Shown piece after piece: positions 9,090 to 44,547 of a stretch of 64,000 bases of DNA. Source of the DNA: Patescibacteria group bacterium (GTDB lineage: Bacteria > Patescibacteriota > Microgenomatia > Levybacterales > GWA1-39-11); the NCBI GenBank assembly GCA_035545675.1, contig DASZYA010000004.1:6519-70518 (forward strand), written 5' to 3'. The notes below the pieces were generated by a model that worked only from the letters and a program-made list of their open reading frames with translations, did no database searches and was not told the origin of the DNA. Within the stretch, counting starts at the first letter, position 1, and the number at the start of each line of letters is the position of its first letter. The translations under genes and the position numbers were made by a program.

Positions 9090-10112
9090 GTTTTTATAGA
9101 CAACAACTAGAAGCGAGATGAAAGGAATTGCAAGTAAAGCTCCTGCCATTCCCAAAAGCTTTCCGCCAATAATAATGCTTAGAATTATAACTATTGGGTT
9201 AAGTCCCACTGCTCTTTGCATGATTCTTGGAACGAGAACATGATTCTCAATAAATTGTATAAAGAAGTAAGATACGGCAACAACAATTCCTAAGAATGGC
9301 GAGATACTTAAAGCCACAAAAACAGCTGGAATCGCAGATATTATCGGACCAATGGTTGGAACTATTTCAAAAAGCGCTGCCGTAACAGCAAGCGGTAATG
9401 CAAACTCTATTCCAATAGCAGTCAGAACTACCCAAGTTAAGATTCCTATAAAAGCAGATAGCACTATTTGTCCACGAAGCCAGTTTCCAAGCTTGTCTTC
9501 AACTTGTTCTACTGTTCTTTTTACTTTCGCTTGATTCTTTTTTGGAAATAGCCCGGCAAAGCTGTCTATAACTGTCTCACGATACAAAAGAAGGTAAAAA
9601 GAGATAGCAAAAATTGAAACAGCCGACACTACTCCACCAAAAACTCTGGTAGTTACACTAATTGCATTTGATCCAATATTTCCAAGTTCATTTGTGGCAA
9701 GGCTATTTATTTGAGAGCTGTGAATTCTTGCACCAAAAAAGTCTATGTCGTGATTTAGATACCCCGGCAAAATCGCAAGTAAGGCTGATACCTGGCTAAT
9801 AAAGAAAGGCAGGATTGAGATTATGATTAAAACTAAGACAGCGATAGTTATAAGATACGGGATTGTTGCGGCAAGTGGCCTTGGTACGTTGTGTGATCTC
9901 AAAAACTTAACCACAGGGTAAATTGCAGACATTATGATGTAGGAAACAAAAAGAGCTACAATAATCTCGCGCATTGCAATTATTGCCCAAAATGTTACTA
10001 CAACAAGAAGCGCTGCTAATACCTGATTTTTGAGGAAGAAGTTGATAAATTGTTTTCTCATAGCCTCAATTATAAACATTATAGGTCTAAATTGCAAGTA
10101 AGAATAGGCCAA
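9081..10112 (-). CDS. AI-2E family (UPF0118/PerM-like) membrane transporter
   Basis: 8-TM protein with a conserved C-terminal block (HVLVPRIMQRAVGLNPIVIILSIIIGGKLLGMAGALLAIPF). Confidence 0.6.
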   Translation of the reverse strand: MAYSYLQFRPIMFIIEAMRKQFINFFLKNQVLAALLVVVTFWAIIAMREIIVALFVSYIIMSAIYPVVKFLRSHNVPRPLAATIPYLITIAVLVLIIISILPFFISQVSALLAILPGYLNHDIDFFGARIHSSQINSLATNELGNIGSNAISVTTRVFGGVVSAVSIFAISFYLLLYRETVIDSFAGLFPKKNQAKVKRTVEQVEDKLGNWLRGQIVLSAFIGILTWVVLTAIGIEFALPLAVTAALFEIVPTIGPIISAIPAVFVALSISPFLGIVVAVSYFFIQFIENHVLVPRIMQRAVGLNPIVIILSIIIGGKLLGMAGALLAIPFISLLVVVYKNLE

Positions 10113-28295: not shown

Positions 28296-28385
28296 GTTTT
28301 GTTAGAAAGAAGTATGAATTTATCAGAGCTTAGGTGTGATTTAGATCATTTATGTCTTTTCAAGCAATTATTAGAATGAAAGCAT

Positions 28386-28796
28386 ATGATACCGGAGAAA
28401 ATACAAAGAATAATTCTTCTAATAGTTCTTGCCTATGAAGGCTTAGGTGGGCTTTTGGGAGGAATACTTTTGGTTTTAGGGCCAGATGGACATTATATGG
28501 ATATGAATATTGAAATTATGCATGGAGCCTTTCCTGACTTTTTAATCCCAGGAGTAATTCTCACTTGTATGGGAGCGCTTACAACAACAGCATTCTTCGC
28601 AGTTCTTAGAAGAAGCAGATATGATTGGCTTCTTGCCGGGTTTTCAATGGGTGGATATATTATTTGGTTTGCAACAGAAATCACGATACTAAGAGAACTT
28701 CATTGGCTTCATATTATGTGGGGAGTCCCGGTTTTAATAGGTGCCTCAATGGTTATTCCAATGCTCCCTTGGTTTAGGAGAAATCTAAGCTCTTAA
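28386..28796 (+). CDS. hypothetical 4-TM membrane protein
   Basis: Hydrophobicity. Confidence 0.35.
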   Translation: MIPEKIQRIILLIVLAYEGLGGLLGGILLVLGPDGHYMDMNIEIMHGAFPDFLIPGVILTCMGALTTTAFFAVLRRSRYDWLLAGFSMGGYIIWFATEITILRELHWLHIMWGVPVLIGASMVIPMLPWFRRNLSS

Positions 28797-35332: not shown

Positions 35333-36031
35333 TTACTCTGCCGGATATCCCGGGAACCAATCACCCTTGATGTGTTCTTTTGGAATTCCCATCTTCTCAA
35401 GCATTTCATTTAGTGAATCTACCATTGGTTCGGGACCTGAAACATAGAAAATTGGTCCGCCAGCTGGCGGATTGAAGTCAGGAACTAATTCTTTTACCTT
35501 ATTCTCATCAATATGTTCTGGAGAAAATACATAATTAATTTTTAGATTCGGATTTCTTGTGGATAGCTCCTCTAGTTCATCTCTGAAAACTACATTTTGA
35601 TCGCGATTTGCATATATTAAATTTACATTAATTGGTTTTTTGTCATGATCAAGCTGTCTTAATATTGATCTGAATGGCGTTATTCCAATTCCTCCTGCAA
35701 TGAATACATATTCTAAGTCTGGATTATCCAGGGTAAAGTCGCCTTCCACGTAAGAAATTTCAATCTCATCTCCCTCTTTTAGACTTGCAAGCTTTTTCTT
35801 AAATGAACTTCCTTTGTCTTGTGTAATTCTTGTTGTAATCTGTACGTGGTTTTCATATGGAGCAGCTGCATTTGTAAACCAACGATCAGATCCTCTATTA
35901 TCTGTTGGTTCGTGATGTAATACGTAGTGAAGATATTGTCCTGGAACCCATTCAAGTTTTTCTTGTGGCTCAAAAATAAAAGTGAGGACTCCAGCGGTAG
36001 CTTCTTTTTTCTCTTTGAGCTTGAGGATCAT
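35333..36031 (-). CDS. ferredoxin-NADP reductase-like FAD/NAD(P)-binding oxidoreductase
   Basis: RWFT..AAP (RxYS-like FAD motif) and FIAGGIGITPFRSIL (NAD-binding GxGxxP). Confidence 0.55.
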   Translation of the reverse strand: MILKLKEKKEATAGVLTFIFEPQEKLEWVPGQYLHYVLHHEPTDNRGSDRWFTNAAAPYENHVQITTRITQDKGSSFKKKLASLKEGDEIEISYVEGDFTLDNPDLEYVFIAGGIGITPFRSILRQLDHDKKPINVNLIYANRDQNVVFRDELEELSTRNPNLKINYVFSPEHIDENKVKELVPDFNPPAGGPIFYVSGPEPMVDSLNEMLEKMGIPKEHIKGDWFPGYPAE

Positions 36032-36080
36032 GATTTATTATAGCACCATAGATCAATCCCTTTGGTATACTCTGCTTATT

Positions 36081-36290
36081 ATGAATCTTAAAAACGATAG
36101 TTATGTGATTCACATGGGGACAAAGAATTTCACAGAGAAGTATTATAAAGATGAAAAGGGTTGGTTGAAGATTTCTGCAAAGGGAAAAGAGTTCAGAATG
36201 ACAGCAGAACAGGTGCTTAATCATTTATTGCCTGCTGTTGCCGGGGTAAAGCCAGGATTAATACTCAAAGTAGAACACAAAGAAGAATAG
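36081..36290 (+). CDS. small hypothetical protein (start assigned to internal Met; ORF open from 35982)
   Basis: ORF only. Confidence 0.25.
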   Translation: MNLKNDSYVIHMGTKNFTEKYYKDEKGWLKISAKGKEFRMTAEQVLNHLLPAVAGVKPGLILKVEHKEE

Positions 36291-36292
36291 AA

Positions 36293-36631
36293 TTACTTAG
36301 TTTTCTTTCTTGACCTGGAGGGGATTAAATTACCAATAATGCTTAAGACTGCTCCGAAAACTGCACTTACAACTCCCATCAAAACAAAAAATGGAATTTT
36401 GGTTGCTACAGGATCAGCGCCGTTATAGTTTGCTACCATAAAAACAAAACCCAAGAAAAATCCATATGCCAACCCATTTTTAATTGACTCTTTTCTGTTG
36501 TTGCTAAGATATCCAATTATTAAAGCAGCCAATCCCCAGGGAATTACGGTTAAAACTTGCAGTGTAAGTACTTTTGTCGCCAAGAAGCCTAAGATTATTC
36601 CTAGGATTCCCGTGATAAGTATTCTCTTCAT
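36293..36631 (-). CDS. hypothetical membrane protein
   Basis: 3-4 TM helices. Confidence 0.3.
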   Translation of the reverse strand: MKRILITGILGIILGFLATKVLTLQVLTVIPWGLAALIIGYLSNNRKESIKNGLAYGFFLGFVFMVANYNGADPVATKIPFFVLMGVVSAVFGAVLSIIGNLIPSRSRKKTK

Positions 36632-36996
36632 TACTCTATTGTACGACTTTTTCTAAAGCCAACCAATATTGGTAAAAGAAAAGTTAGGGCGTAATAAAGG
36701 TAAACATCTGGCTTGTAATAAACGCTAGTTGTTGTGAATGCTCTAACAAGGAAGAAATAGTCACAAATAACTGCAATCAAGGTCCATACGATTGCTATTC
36801 CTAGATAATGTTTTATATCTCTGCTCTTTATTTGTTTTATTAGTACCCACAAAGAAACAATAATTCCAATTGGCATTACGAACCAGCCAATAAGATCATG
36901 TGGCACTATGGTAAAGAAAACTATTCCAAGTCCATATCCAATTAGCCATACCATAAACCCCCAAAAAAATGCATCTTTTAAAAATTGTTTGTTCAT
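36631..36996 (-). CDS. hypothetical membrane protein
   Basis: 4 TM helices; ATGA overlap with the downstream gene. Confidence 0.3.
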   Translation of the reverse strand: MNKQFLKDAFFWGFMVWLIGYGLGIVFFTIVPHDLIGWFVMPIGIIVSLWVLIKQIKSRDIKHYLGIAIVWTLIAVICDYFFLVRAFTTTSVYYKPDVYLYYALTFLLPILVGFRKSRTIE

Positions 36997-37185
36997 AGTA
37001 AATTCCTCTTTTTAATTTCTTCTAAGATTTTCCCGCCAAGAGGACGGCAGCTACAGTTTTTTGCATGTGCCAGATGCCACTCTATTCTTTGGTCAAGCGT
37101 TGGATTTTTTGGCATTTTGTTTTTTGTGTGCCACTCAGCATTTATTTTCATACCAAGAGTTTATCCTACAAGAAAGCAAAATGAT

Positions 37186-37201
37186 GTGATCTTAATCACT
37201 C
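37186..37201. promoter_or_regulatory. CRP/FNR-type palindrome TGTGA-N6-TCACT
   Basis: A direct read: tgtgatcttaatcact. Confidence 0.45.
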
Positions 37202-37630
37202 AAAGGGGTTGTTGTTTTTCATGAATTGATAGGATTTCTCTACTAACTTGGTAAGTGTATCTAGGTCTACATCTGATAGCTTATTTATATAAAGGCAGCC
37301 TCCCATTCCGCCACTGGTTTTGTGCTTGCCCAGTTTTTTCAATAGTGCCTCGCTCTCATTGTTGCCGTGCATAATATATAGAGTTAAATTGGCTTTTCTT
37401 GGGGAGAATCCAACGAGCATCCAGTCTCCTTCTTGGGAACTTTTTTTGGATTTGTAATGATATTTACCAAAACCAACAATACTTCCACCCCACATCACTG
37501 CTTTTTCGCCAGTAATGTTTTCAAACATTTCTAGCAATTTAAGGGCGTCTTTTCTTTTTTCTTCAGGTTCAATAGTATTTAAAAAATCTTTGGGGTCTTG
37601 GGTTGTGACTTTTGTTTTTAACTCTGCCAT
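37196..37630 (-). CDS. DUF1801 (YdhG/YdeI-like) protein, second paralog
   Basis: DPKDFLNTIEPEEKRKDALKLLEMFENITGEKAVMWGGSIVGFGKYHY. Confidence 0.5.
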   Translation of the reverse strand: MAELKTKVTTQDPKDFLNTIEPEEKRKDALKLLEMFENITGEKAVMWGGSIVGFGKYHYKSKKSSQEGDWMLVGFSPRKANLTLYIMHGNNESEALLKKLGKHKTSGGMGGCLYINKLSDVDLDTLTKLVEKSYQFMKNNNPFE

Positions 37631-37695
37631 ACGGGAATTATATCAGATATTCTGCTCAAGCTATTTAGCTTTGATTAAGGTATAATAAACACACA

Positions 37696-38169
37696 ATGGC
37701 ATTTAATAGAGATAGAAATCGTGGCGGTGGACATTTTTCCGGCGGAGGAAGAAGAGATGATAGACGAGAACGTCCACAAATGTTTCCAGCAACCTGCAGT
37801 AACTGTGGGAAAGCATGTGAAGTCCCCTTTAGACCAACTGGAGATAAGCCGGTTTTGTGTAGAGATTGTTTTAGACAAAATGGAGGACCAAGAGAAAGAA
37901 GAGATGATAGGCCTCGTTTTGAGCCAAGACATGATGGTCCACCTCCTCCACCACCATTCCCACCACATATTAAAGAAGAGCTTGATTCTATAAATCAAAA
38001 GGTGGATAAGATCTTGGATATTTTACTTGCTGCAACAGAAATGCCAGAGGAAATAAAAGATGAGGCAATTGATGCTGTTAATGAAGTATTTGAAGACGCT
38101 CCGGTAGAAGTAAAAGCAAAAACCCCCAGAAAAAAGACTTCAAAAGCTACTCCTTCAGAAGAAGTATAA
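37696..38169 (+). CDS. Arg/Gly-rich zinc-ribbon protein (CxxC-x17-CxxC) with acidic C-terminal helix
   Basis: CSNCGKACEVPFRPTGDKPVLCRDC, flanked by RGG/RRDD low complexity. Confidence 0.4.
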   Translation: MAFNRDRNRGGGHFSGGGRRDDRRERPQMFPATCSNCGKACEVPFRPTGDKPVLCRDCFRQNGGPRERRDDRPRFEPRHDGPPPPPPFPPHIKEELDSINQKVDKILDILLAATEMPEEIKDEAIDAVNEVFEDAPVEVKAKTPRKKTSKATPSEEV

Positions 38170-38176
38170 GATACCT

Positions 38177-38250
38177 TGCTCCCCCGCGTGGACTCGGACC
38201 ACGAACCTTATTCTTAACAGGAATCTGCTCTACCATTGAGCTACAGGGGA
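38177..38250 (-). tRNA. tRNA-Asn (anticodon GUU)
   Basis: Hand fold of the reverse complement: acceptor TCCCCTG/CGGGGGA, D-arm GCTC-AATGGTA-GAGC, anticodon loop CTGTTAA, T-arm CGTGG-TCCGAGT-CCACG, discriminator G. Confidence 0.7.
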
Positions 38251-38342
38251 ATGTCCTGACAATTGACAACTAACAATTGACAATTGACGCTCGTAACATT
38301 GAATTATATAAAACCTGAAGCTGATTGTAAATTACTAAGCGG

Positions 38343-39158
38343 TTAGCCTGTTATGAATACGGGAATCCAGGATGGGTAGTTTGCATGTAGTAAGGCAAAA
38401 TACAAAATAAAGTCTACCGTGAGATGAATTGCAATTACATAAACAAGATCATTTGTCTTGTTGTAAACCCAGCCTTGCAGGAAACAAAATATAGGAACAA
38501 TAAGAAACCCCCACTCTCTGAATCCCAGCTCGTAAAGAAAAGACGTAAAGACAATGGTTGTAGCAATATTCGCAGTCATAAAGGGAAAATAACGCTTAAG
38601 GATTCCAAGAGTTGTACTTACAAAGAAAAGTTCATCCCAAATTCCTAGAAGATTTGTCCCCAAGAATAAAACAAAAAGGTTCATGAAGCCCGGCATTACT
38701 GGCCAATTGTGATAAACCCCAGAAGTTTTTAGATAAAAAGGAATCATAAGATAAGCAAGTACAAAAGCAAAAAGGATATAACCGTAGCGAATAGGCTTCC
38801 ATTTGTGAGGAATATGAAAGTTGTATTTGATTTTATCTTCTTTGTAGAAAAATCGGGATATAAGAAAAGGTAGAATTAGTGCTAGTCCCAGTGCTCCACC
38901 CATGGCTACAATATGCTCCGGGCTGATATTGGTTGAAATTGGGGTCACACCCATAATGGAAATGCTTATAAAAGGAAGAAATAGCTCGCGAGCGGCTGTT
39001 CTCTTGTTAAGAATCCAAGTAAGTGCCGTTCCACACACTATGGCAATCCACCCTGCTATATGCTGTTGGAGACCTATTAATAGAACTCCTGAGAGACATA
39101 TAAAAAATAGACTAATATATTTTGCGTAAGTTTGGTTTTTCATTTGCTTAAGATTCAT
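38343..39158 (-). CDS. polytopic membrane protein, possibly CPBP-family intramembrane protease
   Basis: 8 TM helices; WDELFF...FTSFLYE...IAIHLTVD loosely resemble the CPBP EExxxR/FxxxH/HxxxD motifs. Confidence 0.35.
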   Translation of the reverse strand: MNLKQMKNQTYAKYISLFFICLSGVLLIGLQQHIAGWIAIVCGTALTWILNKRTAARELFLPFISISIMGVTPISTNISPEHIVAMGGALGLALILPFLISRFFYKEDKIKYNFHIPHKWKPIRYGYILFAFVLAYLMIPFYLKTSGVYHNWPVMPGFMNLFVLFLGTNLLGIWDELFFVSTTLGILKRYFPFMTANIATTIVFTSFLYELGFREWGFLIVPIFCFLQGWVYNKTNDLVYVIAIHLTVDFILYFALLHANYPSWIPVFITG

Positions 39159-39208
39159 GAATTATATGAAATTGCGTGCGTAGTTGTAAATTGTTAGGGT
39201 GATATAAT

Positions 39209-39460
39209 ATGTTTATGGCAAAAAAAACAAAAACAGAAACGTTTGAGATAAAAGGCGAAGAGCTTCTCAAGAAAATAAAGGAATTGATAAAAGAAGGAAA
39301 CGTAAGAAGAATTATTATCAAAGATAAATTTGGAAAAACAATTATAGAACTTCCCCTAACTGTTGGCGTGGTTGGCGCTGTACTCGCCCCTAGCTTTGCA
39401 GCAATCGGAGCAATAGCCGCCCTAATTGCTGAATGTACAATTATTGTTGAAAGAGAATAG
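39209..39460 (+). CDS. small DUF4342-like protein
   Basis: ETFEIKGEELLKKIKELIKEGNVRRIIIKDKFGKTIIELPLTVG, then a hydrophobic tail. Confidence 0.35.
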   Translation: MFMAKKTKTETFEIKGEELLKKIKELIKEGNVRRIIIKDKFGKTIIELPLTVGVVGAVLAPSFAAIGAIAALIAECTIIVERE

Positions 39461-39473
39461 TTAACAAATAATT

Positions 39474-40109
39474 ATGGATTCTATTAAAGAAAAAATAGAA
39501 GAATTCTTCTCCAAATATAAAATCCAAAAATATAAAAAGGGAGAAATTTTGGTTCGTGCCGGAGATGACCCTGCTGGCATTTTCTATCTTAAATCTGGAC
39601 TTGTTCGAGAATACGCAATTTCCAAGACCGGGGAAGAGGTTGTTGTAAATATATTTAAGACCGGGGCTTTTTTCCCAATGTCTTTTGCAATTAACAAAAC
39701 TCCCAACACATATTTTTTTGAGGCCATGGAAGATCTTATTCTAGTACGAGCGCCAAGTGAGGATGTTGTTGAATTCATAAAAACAAATTCAGACGTTTTA
39801 TTTGACCTTCTTAGACGTGTATATCTGGGAACAGATGGATTATTATCTCGTATGGCTTATCTAATGTCTGGAAGTGCAAGCGAAAGGTTGATTATTGAGC
39901 TTATAATTACTGCCAAAAGATTTGGTACCAAAGAAAGTAGCGAAATTATGGTTAGTACTACAGAAAAAGATCTTGCAACTCAAACCGGAATCACGCGCGA
40001 GACCGTAAGTAGAGAAATAAAAAAACTTAAAGACAAAGGGCTAATAGATTTTGGAAAGCATAGTCTTGTAATAAAGGATATAGCAAAGCTAGAGGAAGAG
40101 ATCTATTAA
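39474..40109 (+). CDS. Crp/Fnr-family transcriptional regulator
   Basis: cNMP-binding beta-roll (ILVRAGDDPAGIFYLKSGLVREY) and a C-terminal HTH (DLATQTGITRETVSREIKKLKDKGLI). Confidence 0.75.
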   Translation: MDSIKEKIEEFFSKYKIQKYKKGEILVRAGDDPAGIFYLKSGLVREYAISKTGEEVVVNIFKTGAFFPMSFAINKTPNTYFFEAMEDLILVRAPSEDVVEFIKTNSDVLFDLLRRVYLGTDGLLSRMAYLMSGSASERLIIELIITAKRFGTKESSEIMVSTTEKDLATQTGITRETVSREIKKLKDKGLIDFGKHSLVIKDIAKLEEEIY

Positions 40110-40456
40110 TTAATAGATTTAGTTATTACTTCTCCAGTTGGTTGAATTCTTCTCCTTATCCTCCCATCTGGAAGTCCTGTTGGAAGTAAGTATCCTTGCC
40201 AATTACCCTCCCCAATAAATAATTCTAAGTGTTTGAGGTCTACAAAATCCGGTTCATTTTTTACTTCATAAAGCCTATAGGGGCCAGCAGAAACTGTGAG
40301 TCTTGGATTAAACTTTTTTTTGGTTGCAACCAAAATATCTCCAATCTCTTCTGCTTCTATCCATGCGAATCTATCCTTTTCATCTAGTGTAAGTATTTTT
40401 GTTTTATCAAAGGTTTCTATCAGAGAATATTTTCCTTGTTTTATTAGTCTTATCAT
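40106..40456 (-). CDS. hypothetical protein
   Basis: ORF; a CRP-like site lies ~30 nt upstream. Confidence 0.3.
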   Translation of the reverse strand: MIRLIKQGKYSLIETFDKTKILTLDEKDRFAWIEAEEIGDILVATKKKFNPRLTVSAGPYRLYEVKNEPDFVDLKHLELFIGEGNWQGYLLPTGLPDGRIRRRIQPTGEVITKSIN

Positions 40457-40484
40457 AGAGTCAAATATATACTTCTTGTAGATA

Positions 40485-40500
40485 GAAATATGTGATTTTA
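40485..40500. promoter_or_regulatory. CRP/FNR-type palindrome TGTGA-N6-TCACT
   Basis: A direct read: tgtgattttaatcact. Confidence 0.45.
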
Positions 40501-41106
40501 ATCACTCTAATTTATTGATTTATTTCATCGATTCAATCTCTTAATAGTTTTAATATTGGTTTATGAGAAAGATGAGAAAAGAAAGTAGAAATTTTTTAAG
40601 AGAAATTTTAGAAGAAATTGAACTAACAATTGCACCGTTTATCAGAATTTTAATGATAAATCCAAATAAGAAATATGTTTAACAAAATATATACATTTTT
40701 AAATAAAGTTCAAGCCCTCACTCTTTTTATGGGACTATTTATAGTTTTTGCTGTAATTCACAATTTGTTTTATGGATTTTTAAGTTTTGAGGAGCCCGTA
40801 TTTTTTGTTTTAGCTCTATTTTTCTTATTCATGTCATTTATATGTTTAATTTTTCAGGTTAGAACAAAGAAGGTTTTCTAGGCAGAGATTGGAGGTGAAT
40901 CATATGGTTTATGAAATAACAGTTCCAGATTATCAGAGAATAATTAAGAAAGAACAAAAGAAAACATTGCTTGAGCAGCTTAAGGCAATACTTTGGGGAA
41001 GGAACAAGACTCCAGATTTTGAAGATGGGGAACCAACGGATGAGCCTGACGAAGAAGGTTATAGGGTAAATTACCCAGCATATAACAGGGTTCATTAACG
41101 GGTCTA

Positions 41107-41754
41107 TTGTTATGGTTAAAATTTGGCTATACTTTTTGTATGGGTAAAATCGCGGGAGTTTTATTTGCTTTAGCTGGCTTTGTAATCTTAATGGGTATCA
41201 CAACTGCTGAATCTTTTTATCCAGGCTATAATCTTCACAGTAGTTATATTAGTTGGCTTGGAGCCACGCCTCCGCCAAACATTATTATTAAGCAGCCTTC
41301 TGCAACCATCTTTGATTTATCTATGGTTTTTGCAGGGATTTTAATTCTTGCCGGAGGAATATTCTTTTATCGTAGATATGGAAACAAGATCCTTTTTGCT
41401 CCGATTCTTTTTATGGGCTTAGGAACTCTTGGAGTTGGTTTGTTTCCAGCTTCTCATGCATCTATTCATCCCTTGATTGCTGGGATCGCTTTTGCTGCAG
41501 GAGGAATTGCAGGGATTCTCTCTTATAGAAAAACCACTGCTCCATTTAGGTATTTGGCTCTGGTTCTTGGATTGGTGACTCTCGGCTTTTTAATACTTGG
41601 GATCCTTGATCCAAAAATCCTCTCTCCGCTTGGTATTGGGGGAGCTGAACGTTGGGTTGCTTACCCAATAACTATTTGGCTAATTTTATTTGGAGGATAT
41701 CTCATGGGTCCAAGACCTACCTCAAAAGCTTCTAAAATCAAAAGTAAAAGATAG
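41107..41754 (+). CDS. hypothetical 6-TM membrane protein
   Basis: Hydrophobicity. Confidence 0.35.
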   Translation: MLWLKFGYTFCMGKIAGVLFALAGFVILMGITTAESFYPGYNLHSSYISWLGATPPPNIIIKQPSATIFDLSMVFAGILILAGGIFFYRRYGNKILFAPILFMGLGTLGVGLFPASHASIHPLIAGIAFAAGGIAGILSYRKTTAPFRYLALVLGLVTLGFLILGILDPKILSPLGIGGAERWVAYPITIWLILFGGYLMGPRPTSKASKIKSKR

Positions 41755-42183
41755 GGCTTGATAGCGCCCAAAACCCTCATTTGTAAGAGCAATTTAGACC
41801 TATAGCATGCCACTTTACAGTAGGATTCACTTATGATATATTCCACCTATAGGAAAGATGTTTAGCCGCTATTTTGCATGGCGGTAATGAACGCTTTCTT
41901 TTTTTTGGTTTTGCAGAATTCGTGCCTAAAATTGCATTTAGGTTTTGAGCTTTGCATTCGCACTTTGAAAACTAGATTTTTGGAAAGAAAATAATTTTAA
42001 TTTTTAATATATGTAACGCAGAATTTTGACTGCGGCGCTCTAGAAATAAAACGCATTGTTTTTAGAAGGCCGTGGTCAAAGTGGCTAATTGACTAAATAT
42101 AAGGCATAGAAAGGATATAGCCAACCAAAAGGGACATGTAGACAGCAATATCGTTACGTGAATAGTTCTTTAAGGACCGAACA

Positions 42184-44547
42184 TTGAATAGGACAGATCG
42201 TTCCGACCCGCCAGTCAACGAGACCTTCAAGACCTTCGTTACGCCTTATGTTGCTCCCTTCGAGCGATTCGGGCAGAACGACGGCAGAGAGGTCGGCGGC
42301 AAGGTAGCCAACATCGGTGAGATGATTCGGGCAGAAATACCCGTACCCGATGGGTTCGCCATCAAGGTGAGCGCATGGGATCGTTTCATCGAGTACAACA
42401 ACCTGATGCCGCGCATCCTCGAACTTCACGAGGGTCTCGACTTCAGGAACGAAGGCGAGCGTCATGAGCGCTCAAATCACCTCATGGCACTCATTAAGGG
42501 TGCTAGTATGCCTCCGGATGTCGCTCAAGACATCAGGCAGGCGTACCGTCTGCTCTCTGGTTCGACCGACGTACGAGTGGCGGTAAGATCTTCGGCTACG
42601 GCTGAGGACCTTGCTAAAGCTTCGAGCGCCGGCGAGTACGACTCCAAGCTCAACGTTTACGGAGAGGTGGACGTCGTAGTTGCAGTACAGGCGGTATTCG
42701 CGTCAGTGTTCACTGCTCGCGCGATGCTCTATCGCGATCAAAACGGCATTCCCTTCACGGGAGTTAAGATGGCCGTTGCGGTTATGAGGATGGTTCAGTC
42801 CGTAAGGTCTGCCATCGTTTTCACCGCGGACCGCATTTCCGGCAACCGAAACGTTATGTCGATGACAATCGGCATGGGTCTCGGCGAGACGCTGGTCCAG
42901 AGCACGGTTACTGCCGACTTCATCAAGGTCGACAGGGCGAGGCGCACGATCATTTCCAGGATAATCGGTAGTCAAACTCACCAGATGGTGTGGTCCGATG
43001 ACCTGCGAAAGAACATCGACGTTGAGATCGAACCCGAACTCCGGGACGCTCCCAAGGCCGATGAGGTGCAGACCCTGGATTTGGCCGACATCTGCGAAAT
43101 GGTGGAACGACACTACGGGCGTCCCCGCGACATCGAAGCCGCGATGGCCCCCAATGGTCGTTGGTACATCGTTCAGTCACGTGACTGTACGACTCCCCTG
43201 ATCGAGGACGAGCCCGAACCGGCAGTCGCGCTCAGGCCGTTTGTTACTGGTATCGAAGCTTCCGCAGGGATTGCTTCGGGCCCAGTTCGAATCATCCGGA
43301 CGCTGCAAGATCTTCACGCGTTCAGCGAGGGAGATATTCTCGTCACCGAGATGACCACTCCCGACATGCTTGACGAGATGGAGCTGGCCGCCGCCGTTGT
43401 TGCGGAAATCGGTACCTCCAACTCGCATGCTGCAATCGTTTGCGGAGAGATGGAAACCCCATGTGTTGTGGGAGCGGACGGAGTTATGTCTCTCCTTCGC
43501 GATGGGGACATCATCACCGTGGATGGTAGCCATGGCAAGGTGTATAGGGGAGAAATTCCTGAGCTCTTGGCCTGGCACGATCGGCGTGAAGCTCGGCTGA
43601 CCAAGCTGGCAGAAGAAGGTGAGAAGGTAAAAACCCGCACAAAGATTGGGTTGATCGCCGCCACGCCTCGAGCTGCTGTCAAGCTGGCCCGCCGAAACGT
43701 CGACATGGTATGTCTCTATCGTACGGAGCTAGCGGTTAGCCGCCTCAAGTTGCACCCTCGCGTCTTCGACGCTCAGGGCCGACGAGAGGTGTTCATTCGA
43801 AGCCTGGTTGACTCCATGTCTGCCTACTGCGAGGCATTTTTTCCCCGTTACCTTGCAGATAACAGCAAGGGCCTCGTGGTCGTTCGGACTCTCGACTACA
43901 AAGATGACGAGATGGCTCGACTCGAAGGCTCGGAGCTGTACGAAAAGCCCGGCAAGAACTTTATGCTGGGTAAGCGGGGACTTTTCCGTTACGAATGGGA
44001 TCATGTTACACACGAGATGGAGACTGAGGCACTCAAACGAGTCGCCCAGAAGTATCCTAACCTCGTCGTGATGGTGCCGTTCCCGCGGACGCCCGAAGAA
44101 CTCGGACGTGTCACCGCCAAGTTGGTTGAGCGAGGCCTCAATGTCCCTCTGTGGGCTATGGCTGAGGTACCGCTAACCATTATGTATCTCGAGGAGTTTG
44201 TTGATGCTTGCCAAGGCCGACTCAAGGGTCTGTCGATCGGTAGCAACGATGCGCTTCAGGGACTCATGATGGTTGACCGCGAAGATCCAATTCTCGCCGC
44301 CCACGCTGAGTACTCGGAGAACCATCCGCTCATGCGTCGGACTTTCGTCGACATCGTTCGTCGAGGTAAGGCAAGGGGTCTCACGGTCAGTCTGTGTGGT
44401 AATGCTGTCAGCAAATTCCCGGAAATCGCCGCGGATTTGGTGGAAGCAGGAATTGATTCCATTGGGGTTGATCCGCGCAAGGCTGACATCGTTCGCAACA
44501 TCGTCAAGGAGACTGAGGAGAGGCTCGGCATTACGCTCGAAGCATAA
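42184..44547 (+). CDS. ppsA: phosphoenolpyruvate synthase (pyruvate, water dikinase)-like PEP-utilizing enzyme; sits in a ~58% GC island
   Basis: N-terminal GGKVANIGEM (PPDK_N ATP-grasp); phosphohistidine swivel domain GTSNSHAAIVCGEMETPCVVG; C-terminal TIM-barrel PEP-binding domain (SIGSNDALQGLM; SLCGNAVSKFPE). 787 aa, similar to E. coli PpsA at 792 aa. Its codon usage and GC are wholly unlike the flanks. Confidence 0.75.
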   Translation: MNRTDRSDPPVNETFKTFVTPYVAPFERFGQNDGREVGGKVANIGEMIRAEIPVPDGFAIKVSAWDRFIEYNNLMPRILELHEGLDFRNEGERHERSNHLMALIKGASMPPDVAQDIRQAYRLLSGSTDVRVAVRSSATAEDLAKASSAGEYDSKLNVYGEVDVVVAVQAVFASVFTARAMLYRDQNGIPFTGVKMAVAVMRMVQSVRSAIVFTADRISGNRNVMSMTIGMGLGETLVQSTVTADFIKVDRARRTIISRIIGSQTHQMVWSDDLRKNIDVEIEPELRDAPKADEVQTLDLADICEMVERHYGRPRDIEAAMAPNGRWYIVQSRDCTTPLIEDEPEPAVALRPFVTGIEASAGIASGPVRIIRTLQDLHAFSEGDILVTEMTTPDMLDEMELAAAVVAEIGTSNSHAAIVCGEMETPCVVGADGVMSLLRDGDIITVDGSHGKVYRGEIPELLAWHDRREARLTKLAEEGEKVKTRTKIGLIAATPRAAVKLARRNVDMVCLYRTELAVSRLKLHPRVFDAQGRREVFIRSLVDSMSAYCEAFFPRYLADNSKGLVVVRTLDYKDDEMARLEGSELYEKPGKNFMLGKRGLFRYEWDHVTHEMETEALKRVAQKYPNLVVMVPFPRTPEELGRVTAKLVERGLNVPLWAMAEVPLTIMYLEEFVDACQGRLKGLSIGSNDALQGLMMVDREDPILAAHAEYSENHPLMRRTFVDIVRRGKARGLTVSLCGNAVSKFPEIAADLVEAGIDSIGVDPRKADIVRNIVKETEERLGITLEA

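Follow-up and report, generated by a model that had tools for sequence, protein, structure and literature searches.

A window of 64,000 nucleotides from a Patescibacteria group bacterium of the Levybacterales (assembly GCA_035545675.1, contig DASZYA010000004.1, positions 6,519 to 70,518) contains three strong palindromes and a single gene for a Crp/Fnr-family regulator (39474..40109, here called crp), and on balance we favour the view that the encoded protein activates leaderless promoters in the class II manner. In this model the palindromes (wTGTGAT-N4-ATCACAw) would be operators of the dimeric regulator, which is encoded between sites 1 and 2 and would control at least three promoters of the window, those of an operon beginning with a 52-aa gene (site 1), of a 116-aa gene (site 2) and of a 136-aa gene (site 3). 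A fourth promoter, that of a divergent operon of small open reading frames (ORFs), might be served through a weak second box. The distance from each box centre to a downstream, apparently weak TAnnnT -10 hexamer is 29.5 bp, and the hexamer stands 12-14 nt before the start codon. If the A of the ATG or a base adjoining it were the first to be transcribed, leaving no leader, the box centre would come to -41.5, where the dimer would abut region 4 of sigma, contact RNA polymerase and activate an intrinsically poor promoter. The presence, conservation and rigid placement of the sites, the retention of the DNA-reading residues and the weak look of the core promoters are observations, whereas the identity of the binding protein, activation as the direction of control, leaderless initiation and the physiological theme of the regulon are what we infer in this model from sequence.

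The initial annotation of the window had described two TGTGAT-N4-ATCACT elements around the regulator gene and had proposed that they are operators of this regulator and form a local regulon. Both 16-mers are present, displaced by 1 nt (site 1) and 6 nt (site 2) from the positions then given, and a third, equally strong site at 28336-28349 had been overlooked. The motif with its 12 specified bases is found twice in the 64-kb window versus 0.02 matches expected from dinucleotide shuffles, and none of 100 such shuffles reached two matches. The actual palindrome of sites 1 and 2 is GTGAT-N4-ATCAC. Written as TGTGA-N6-TCAC(A/T), the putative operators show the format of the Crp/Fnr superfamily, namely 5-bp half-sites separated by a 6-bp gap.

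For scoring, a position weight matrix (PWM; consensus wTGTGAT-N4-ATCACAw, 159 sites) was derived solely from the ortholog loci described below. Site 1, TGTGATCTTAATCACT, occupies 37185-37200 (core GTGAT-N4-ATCAC at 37186-37199, 22-mer at 37182-37203) and scores 20.3 bits, site 2, TGTGATTTTAATCACT, occupies 40491-40506 (core 40492-40505, 22-mer 40488-40509) with 18.8 bits, and site 3, with the core GTGATTTAGATCAT at 28336-28349 (22-mer 28332-28353), reaches 18.0 bits. These are the only three window positions above 15 bits, where the shuffles yield 0.4 matches. Only 5.0 bits are reached by TTGATTTATTTCAT (40515-40528), a possible weak second box at a distance of 23 bp from site 2.

Sites 1 and 2 are both located upstream of minus-strand genes, at a near-equal distance. 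The core of site 1 ends 34 nt before the ATG (37151) of a minus-strand 52-aa ORF, its centre being 41.5 nt upstream of the A, while the core of site 2 ends 35 nt before the ATG (40456) of the 116-aa ORF (40106..40456, minus strand), with the centre 42.5 nt upstream of the A; the initial annotation had put this last site about 30 nt before the ORF, which agrees with the actual 34-35 nt. The -10-like hexamers are TAAACT for site 1 (37158..37163, minus strand, 12 nt before the ATG), TATATT for site 2 (40464..40469, minus strand, 13 nt before the ATG) and TAGAAT for site 3 (28372-28377, plus strand). The first base of each hexamer lies 29.5 bp from the centre of its site, so that in their sequence all three window sites occupy the class II position.

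To assess conservation, 80 loci with regulator orthologs and 10 kb of flank on each side were collected, 1.3 Mb in total, from Levy-, Davies-, Roizman- and Woesebacteria, Saccharibacteria and WWE3. In these loci the exact core GTGAT-N4-ATCAC is present 26 times, copies redundant with the window not being counted, versus 1.4 expected, an approximately 18-fold excess. The initial annotation had asked for the motif frequency across the whole genome; its frequency was determined in the 64-kb window and the 1.3 Mb of ortholog loci and is above random in both. When one mismatch is tolerated, a box is found 34-38 or 57-61 nt ahead of the start codon (ATG) of the orthologous 116-aa gene in 28 loci, both boxes often being present together, 23 bp apart. 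Of 42 loci, most have the orthologous site in front of this gene.

An enumeration of all 4-mer inverted repeats with spacers of 0-12, carried out upstream of 41 orthologs of the 116-aa gene from outside the window and without use of the previously proposed motif, ranked TGAT-N4-ATCA first (26 of 41 versus 57 of 1276 background regions, p 4e-25). The second rank was taken by ATCA-N11-TGAT (15 of 41), the signature of tandem boxes 23 bp apart. In addition, the gene order crp > 116-aa gene < box is kept in about 40 of 77 loci, and in nearly all of these 77 one box or more can be found no further than a gene or two away from crp. Similar results were obtained for the 52-aa gene, for which six further orthologs on independent contigs were inspected and four (L083/84, L085/86, L087 and L088/89) have a box with its centre at -40.5 or -41.5 relative to the ATG; together with L077 and the window, six of eight loci have it. 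As the box recurs at orthologous positions before both gene families, the reading of sites 1 and 2 as conserved regulatory elements is solidly supported by these comparisons.

The promoter geometry was analyzed for 167 boxes scoring 12 bits or more. In 78 of them the distance from the box centre to the first base of a TAnnnT hexamer is exactly 29.5 bp, against a background of about 10 cases per offset; the 29.5-bp class comprises 71 non-redundant promoters from 42 loci. With the hexamer at -12 to -7, the box would be centred on -41.5, where CRP and FNR sit at class II promoters. Smaller TAnnnT peaks appear 40.5 bp (+11) and 52.5 bp (+23) from the box centre. At 40.5 bp there is a class of 26 non-redundant boxes that stand alone, with a centre at about -52.5 and no second box nearer to the promoter.

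Counted from the first base of the hexamer, the start codon follows most often after 12 nt (19 cases). Among the promoters of the 116-aa family, TAnnnT lies at -12 from the ATG in 16 of 35 and a Shine-Dalgarno (SD)-like sequence is seen in one of 35; for all genes in the ortholog loci the -12 hexamer peak amounts to about 17% and SD-like sequences to about 18%. From the 12-nt offset together with the scarcity of SD sequences the transcripts are predicted to be leaderless or nearly so.

For comparison, 206 putative leaderless promoters without a box were taken from the ortholog loci (L002-L081) and the window. They share an extended -10 element of the form TnTGnTATAAT, with T at -15 in 59% and G at -14 in 52%, whose distance from the ATG is exactly 12 nt; no -35 element was seen among them, which suggests that leaderless, -35-independent transcription may be widespread in these Patescibacteria. 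The 78 box-bearing promoters differ from this set in that the TG-extension is depleted (G at -14 in 14% versus 52%, p 1.5e-9) and the hexamers are poorer (A at -9 in 42% versus 71%, p 9e-6). Altogether, depletion of the TG-extension and of consensus -10 bases reaches p values from 1.5e-9 to 7e-5, and the cores of the promoters with a box look weak. Weak cores, phasing to the single base pair and additional sites one or two helical turns further upstream fit activation better than occlusion.

There are however several observations that weigh against activation by this regulator. A box touching the -35 region could equally occlude RNA polymerase and so repress, and the promoter-proximal flank contains a partial -35-like TGAc at -34 to -31, meaning that some promoters may have a basal activity which the bound protein would block. 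Moreover, in about 10 other loci boxes are found upstream of crp itself, 8-38 nt from the start codon and outside the class II geometry, too near to the start for activation, so that repression at some promoters is likely. The box-bearing and the site-less promoters were chosen by different criteria, gene starts were set by a simple ORF rule, and the PWM was seeded from the motif of the initial annotation, which renders the core of its logo partly circular, whereas the dyad and offset tests are free of this circularity. Finally, binding, transcription start sites and expression are predictions made here from the DNA alone.

The boxes upstream of crp occur in L019, L023, L024, L026, L032, L047 and others (at about 9900-9965 of the locus), and some of them lie at -41.5 for a divergent gene coding for a histidine kinase or a VIT1 protein. 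Their position suggests that crp may be subject to negative autoregulation in these loci.

A rival model has the same sites and the same regulator, but acting mainly as a repressor, bound from -48 to -35 and blocking sigma or RNA polymerase until a signal releases it. The box does abut or overlap the TGAc, and the boxes before crp in other loci have a position typical of autorepression. On the other hand, the box-to-hexamer spacing is fixed to a single bp, and there are secondary peaks 11 and 23 bp further upstream, at whose centres (-52.5 and -64.5) a repressor would not occlude the polymerase. The loss of the TG-extension and of consensus -10 bases is expected of activator-dependent promoters and not of repressed ones, and the site-less promoters show no -35 element whatsoever. 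We therefore consider a mainly repressing role rather unlikely and retain class II activation as the preferred model.

The regulator itself is a protein of 211 aa encoded on the plus strand (39474..40109; cNMP_binding plus HTH_Crp_2). Residues 18-105 form a beta-barrel of the cNMP-binding type (PF00027, E 1.4e-15, 57.5 bits versus a cut-off of 27.5 bits), followed by a C-terminal helix-turn-helix of the Crp type (PF13545/PF00325; HTH_Crp_2 53.1 bits versus 27, Crp 24.3 versus 21). It had been called the only Crp/Fnr regulator of the window, and indeed it is the sole match of the family profile when all six-frame ORFs of 60 aa or more (258) are searched. Both domains and the predicted operator type make it a member of the Crp/Fnr superfamily. 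Homologs at E <1e-10 number more than 1,200, many of them 58-74% identical and derived from Levybacteria and relatives.

The putative recognition helix T-R-E-T-V-S-R-E is invariant in 32 orthologs, and a profile alignment (hhalign) pairs R175/E176/R180 with R180/E181/R185 of E. coli CRP, which read GTGA. The DNA-reading residues of CRP are thus present and invariant in this family. The cAMP contacts are not; G71/E72 and R82/S83 of CRP are replaced by P68/M69 and N78/T79, of which P68, M69 and N78 are invariant in the 32 orthologs. The protein contains no cysteine, nor is there a conserved cysteine column in the orthologs, which excludes a cluster of the FNR type. As judged from these residues, neither an iron-sulfur (Fe-S) cluster nor cAMP bound in the E. 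coli fashion serves as effector. In addition, the regulator stays far under all curated NCBIfam subfamily cut-offs, in detail 45.7 bits against 266 for the CRP equivalog model NF008732, 50.4 against 228 for the Fnr model NF008365 and 42 against 245 for the NtcA model TIGR03697, the closest solved structure by sequence being that of NtcA (8h3v/3la2, E 3e-19). Because a defining feature of each was looked for and found missing, the regulator is not CRP proper, FNR or NtcA.

It is accordingly very unlikely that we are dealing with true cAMP-CRP catabolite control, orthologous in function to that of E. coli. The TGTGA-type box, the conserved R/E/R residues and the cNMP_binding domain would all suit it, but the replaced cAMP contacts and the score against the equivalog model do not, and sugar-catabolic genes are absent among the recurrent predicted targets.

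Even less probable is that the palindromes are chance matches, sites of an unrelated factor, or structural repeats or terminator stems without a link to the regulator. The scan of this genome covered 64 kb, which leaves some room for such an explanation, but it is opposed by the enrichment, by the conservation before two gene families, by the co-localisation with crp in most of the 77 loci, by the fixed distance to the -10 hexamer and by the agreement of the box with what the recognition helix would be expected to read. The initial proposal of a local regulon under the adjacent regulator gains in turn from the enrichment, the unbiased dyad search, the orthologous positions and the preserved recognition helix. 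A terminator or structural palindrome was considered separately and rejected, as the arms measure 5 bp around a 4-nt spacer, a T-run is missing and the position relative to start codons is fixed; a terminator scan of 36000-42000 returned nothing at sites 1 and 2. Least probable of all is an FNR-type oxygen sensor with an Fe-S cluster, for although half-sites often read TTGAT (30% T at the first core position), the recognition helix has an FNR-like E..SR and several targets have a redox flavour (VKOR, rhodanese, flavodoxin), a protein with no cysteine, in a family with no conserved cysteine column, that scores so far below the Fnr cut-off is hardly compatible with it.

The predicted target operon of site 1 (36293..37151, minus strand) consists of overlapping reading frames for the 52-aa protein (p52, 37151..36993), a 121-aa membrane protein (36996..36631) and a 112-aa membrane protein (36631..36293). 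The initial annotation had assigned no target to site 1, and the 52-aa gene with these two downstream minus-strand genes is added here. The p52 family comprises 179 clusters, the best 120 of which are 71-90% identical; few clusters carry a source name, and most of those that do are from Patescibacteria. Judged by this family size and identity, the 52-aa ORF is a real gene. Usually it is followed by an overlapping gene for a membrane protein of about 120 aa, a pairing that is conserved in the homologs. The protein itself, which is very conserved, contains a W-H ... H-x2-H-x3-C-x-C pattern that could be a metal-binding site. On the other side of site 1, a DUF1801 gene (37196..37630, minus strand) has its TGA stop codon (37196-37198) inside the GTGAT half-site, so that the end of this gene and the putative operator of the following operon share sequence.

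Site 2 faces the gene for the 116-aa protein (p116), which is convergent with crp, lacks a Pfam match and is the most conserved of the predicted targets. The predicted target of site 3 is a 136-aa membrane protein (28386-28796, plus strand, ATG 28386), homologs of which bear boxes in L026 and L009. For the weak box near site 2 the plus-strand geometry is complete, with TAATAT at 40551-40556 and then ATG 40563. This ATG opens a 39-aa ORF (40563-40682, plus strand), called as a 39-aa gene on contig L001, which is followed by a 68-aa ORF (40675-40881, plus strand). Such a layout matches ortholog loci in which tandem boxes serve divergent genes (e.g. L004). Site 2 had been thought to face the divergent ORF at 40675; it is likelier that the weak box serves this unit and that the unit starts at 40563 instead of 40675, a plausible but weak assignment which we make with low confidence. 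Upstream of crp lies a DUF4342 gene (39209-39460), with which crp is probably co-transcribed; this arrangement is not conserved, being found in 7 loci only, and no box was found upstream of the DUF4342-crp operon of the window (best PWM score -4.9 bits).

Predicted targets that recur in relatives include cupin, Usp, PEP (phosphoenolpyruvate) synthase (PpsA), VKOR, VIT1 and rhodanese proteins as well as bacterial PH-domain proteins, a baeRF release-factor-like protein and a histidine kinase. Single cases are Hsp20, a hibernation-factor-like protein and an NRAMP transporter. Taken by their family names, these targets suggest a regulon with a flavour of stress or dormancy.

The 116-aa family contains 380 clusters, all of them hypothetical and none with a Pfam domain, and an exhaustive profile search of 1.84 billion representative proteins returned only 196 members; the protein is largely confined to this bacterial group. 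It matches nothing in Pfam or NCBIfam, and its family profile gives only noise against the PDB. An AlphaFold2 model (pLDDT 74) is all-beta. No link emerged from sequence profiles, nor are the histidines of LigD-PE conserved in the family. Rare long members (P0464, P0506, P0477, P0475, P0468, P0364) carry a C-terminal DUF2795, Rho_N or DUF5661 domain, fusions which give a vague hint of a possible nucleic-acid or stress role.

One might speculate further that a clade of two-domain Crp/Fnr proteins common to the whole Candidate Phyla Radiation (CPR) responds to a signal other than cAMP and drives a stress or dormancy regulon by class II activation of -35-less leaderless promoters. The lineage-restricted 116-aa protein, its invariant first target, with a fold weakly similar to LigD 3'-phosphoesterase and triphosphate-tunnel enzymes, might then have a nucleotide or the end of a nucleic acid as its substrate and might even produce or eliminate the ligand of the regulator, closing a feedback loop. 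Taken as a whole, we hold this extended scenario to be distinctly unlikely.

Patescibacteria, or CPR bacteria, are mostly uncultured and possess very few regulators, and to our knowledge almost nothing is known about their transcriptional control. The system described here offers a concrete and testable regulatory code for several CPR classes, consisting of a box, a protein, a rigid promoter geometry and a candidate regulon, with two conserved proteins of no assigned function (116 aa and 52 aa) as prime candidate targets. Extended -10, -35-less and often leaderless promoters, if true, would in addition help in the prediction of gene starts and operons in CPR genomes. A Crp/Fnr regulon of Patescibacteria or Saccharibacteria is not described in any paper that we found, nor did our literature searches yield anything relevant on leaderless transcription in CPR. 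A 2025 survey of about 6,000 genomes reports a notable absence of two-domain CRP/FNR proteins from the CPR clade (PMC12531629). Our data are not in keeping with this, most of the more than 1,200 homologs being named for Levybacteria or Patescibacteria.

Some other features of the region and of the loci are worth recording. The window contains, in a GC-rich block (about 42.2-44.7 kb), a PEP-synthase-like gene (42184-44547) of 56% GC versus 38.5% for the contig, and the encoded protein is only 31-34% identical to the native PpsA (about 39% GC) of the ortholog loci. In 15 of these loci the native ppsA neighbours crp and the gene for the 116-aa protein, and 7 of the native genes have a Crp-type box, whereas none was found upstream of the window copy (best PWM score -0.3 bits). 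The window gene looks like a horizontally acquired replacement that would stand outside the regulon. Between a tRNA-Asn gene (38178-38250, minus strand) and a near-consensus match TTTACA-17-TATAAT (38331..38303, minus strand), CAATTGAC is present in three copies starting at 38260, 38274 and 38281 (38260-38288). Many records of metagenome-assembled genomes with a Patescibacteria-type locus (L003-L005, L008, L009 and others) are titled 'uncultured Gammaproteobacteria bacterium'. The gene content of these loci, and the GC content where it was computed (ppsA-bearing loci), match Levybacteria-like genomes, and the taxonomy of the records is probably a placeholder or an error.

When compared to known systems, the one described here is predicted to behave as a textbook class II activator of the Crp/Fnr type, yet one distinct from CRP proper, FNR and NtcA. 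With E. coli CRP at class II promoters (e.g. galP1, with its box at -41.5) it shares the two-domain architecture, the 16-bp inverted repeat TGTGA-N6-TCACA, the Arg/Glu/Arg readers of the recognition helix and a box centre 29.5 bp from the -10 hexamer, equal to -41.5. Unlike E. coli CRP, the regulator has its cAMP-contact residues replaced (P68/M69, N78/T79), its promoters appear to be leaderless in genomes without a -35 element, and its targets are not catabolic. FNR of E. coli and FNR-like proteins, for which class II placement is the rule, have the tolerance of a TTGAT half-site and the E..SR motif of the helix in common with it, but here the lack of cysteines means that there is no Fe-S cluster, and at the discriminating position G (56%) is found more often than T (30%).

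The cyanobacterial 2-oxoglutarate sensor NtcA, likewise a class II activator, belongs to the same superfamily and is of the same length; it reads however GTA-N8-TAC with an R-V-T-V-T-R helix, whereas GTGAT-N4-ATCAC is here combined with R-E-T-V-S-R. Finally, the Crp/Fnr member SdrP from Thermus thermophilus (PDB 2zcw) was matched at E 1.2e-9 and is only distantly related in sequence. SdrP, which controls genes of stress and the stationary phase, needs no bound effector for its activity, and the stress and redox genes of its regulon are reminiscent of the Usp, Hsp20 and cupin flavour of the targets predicted here.

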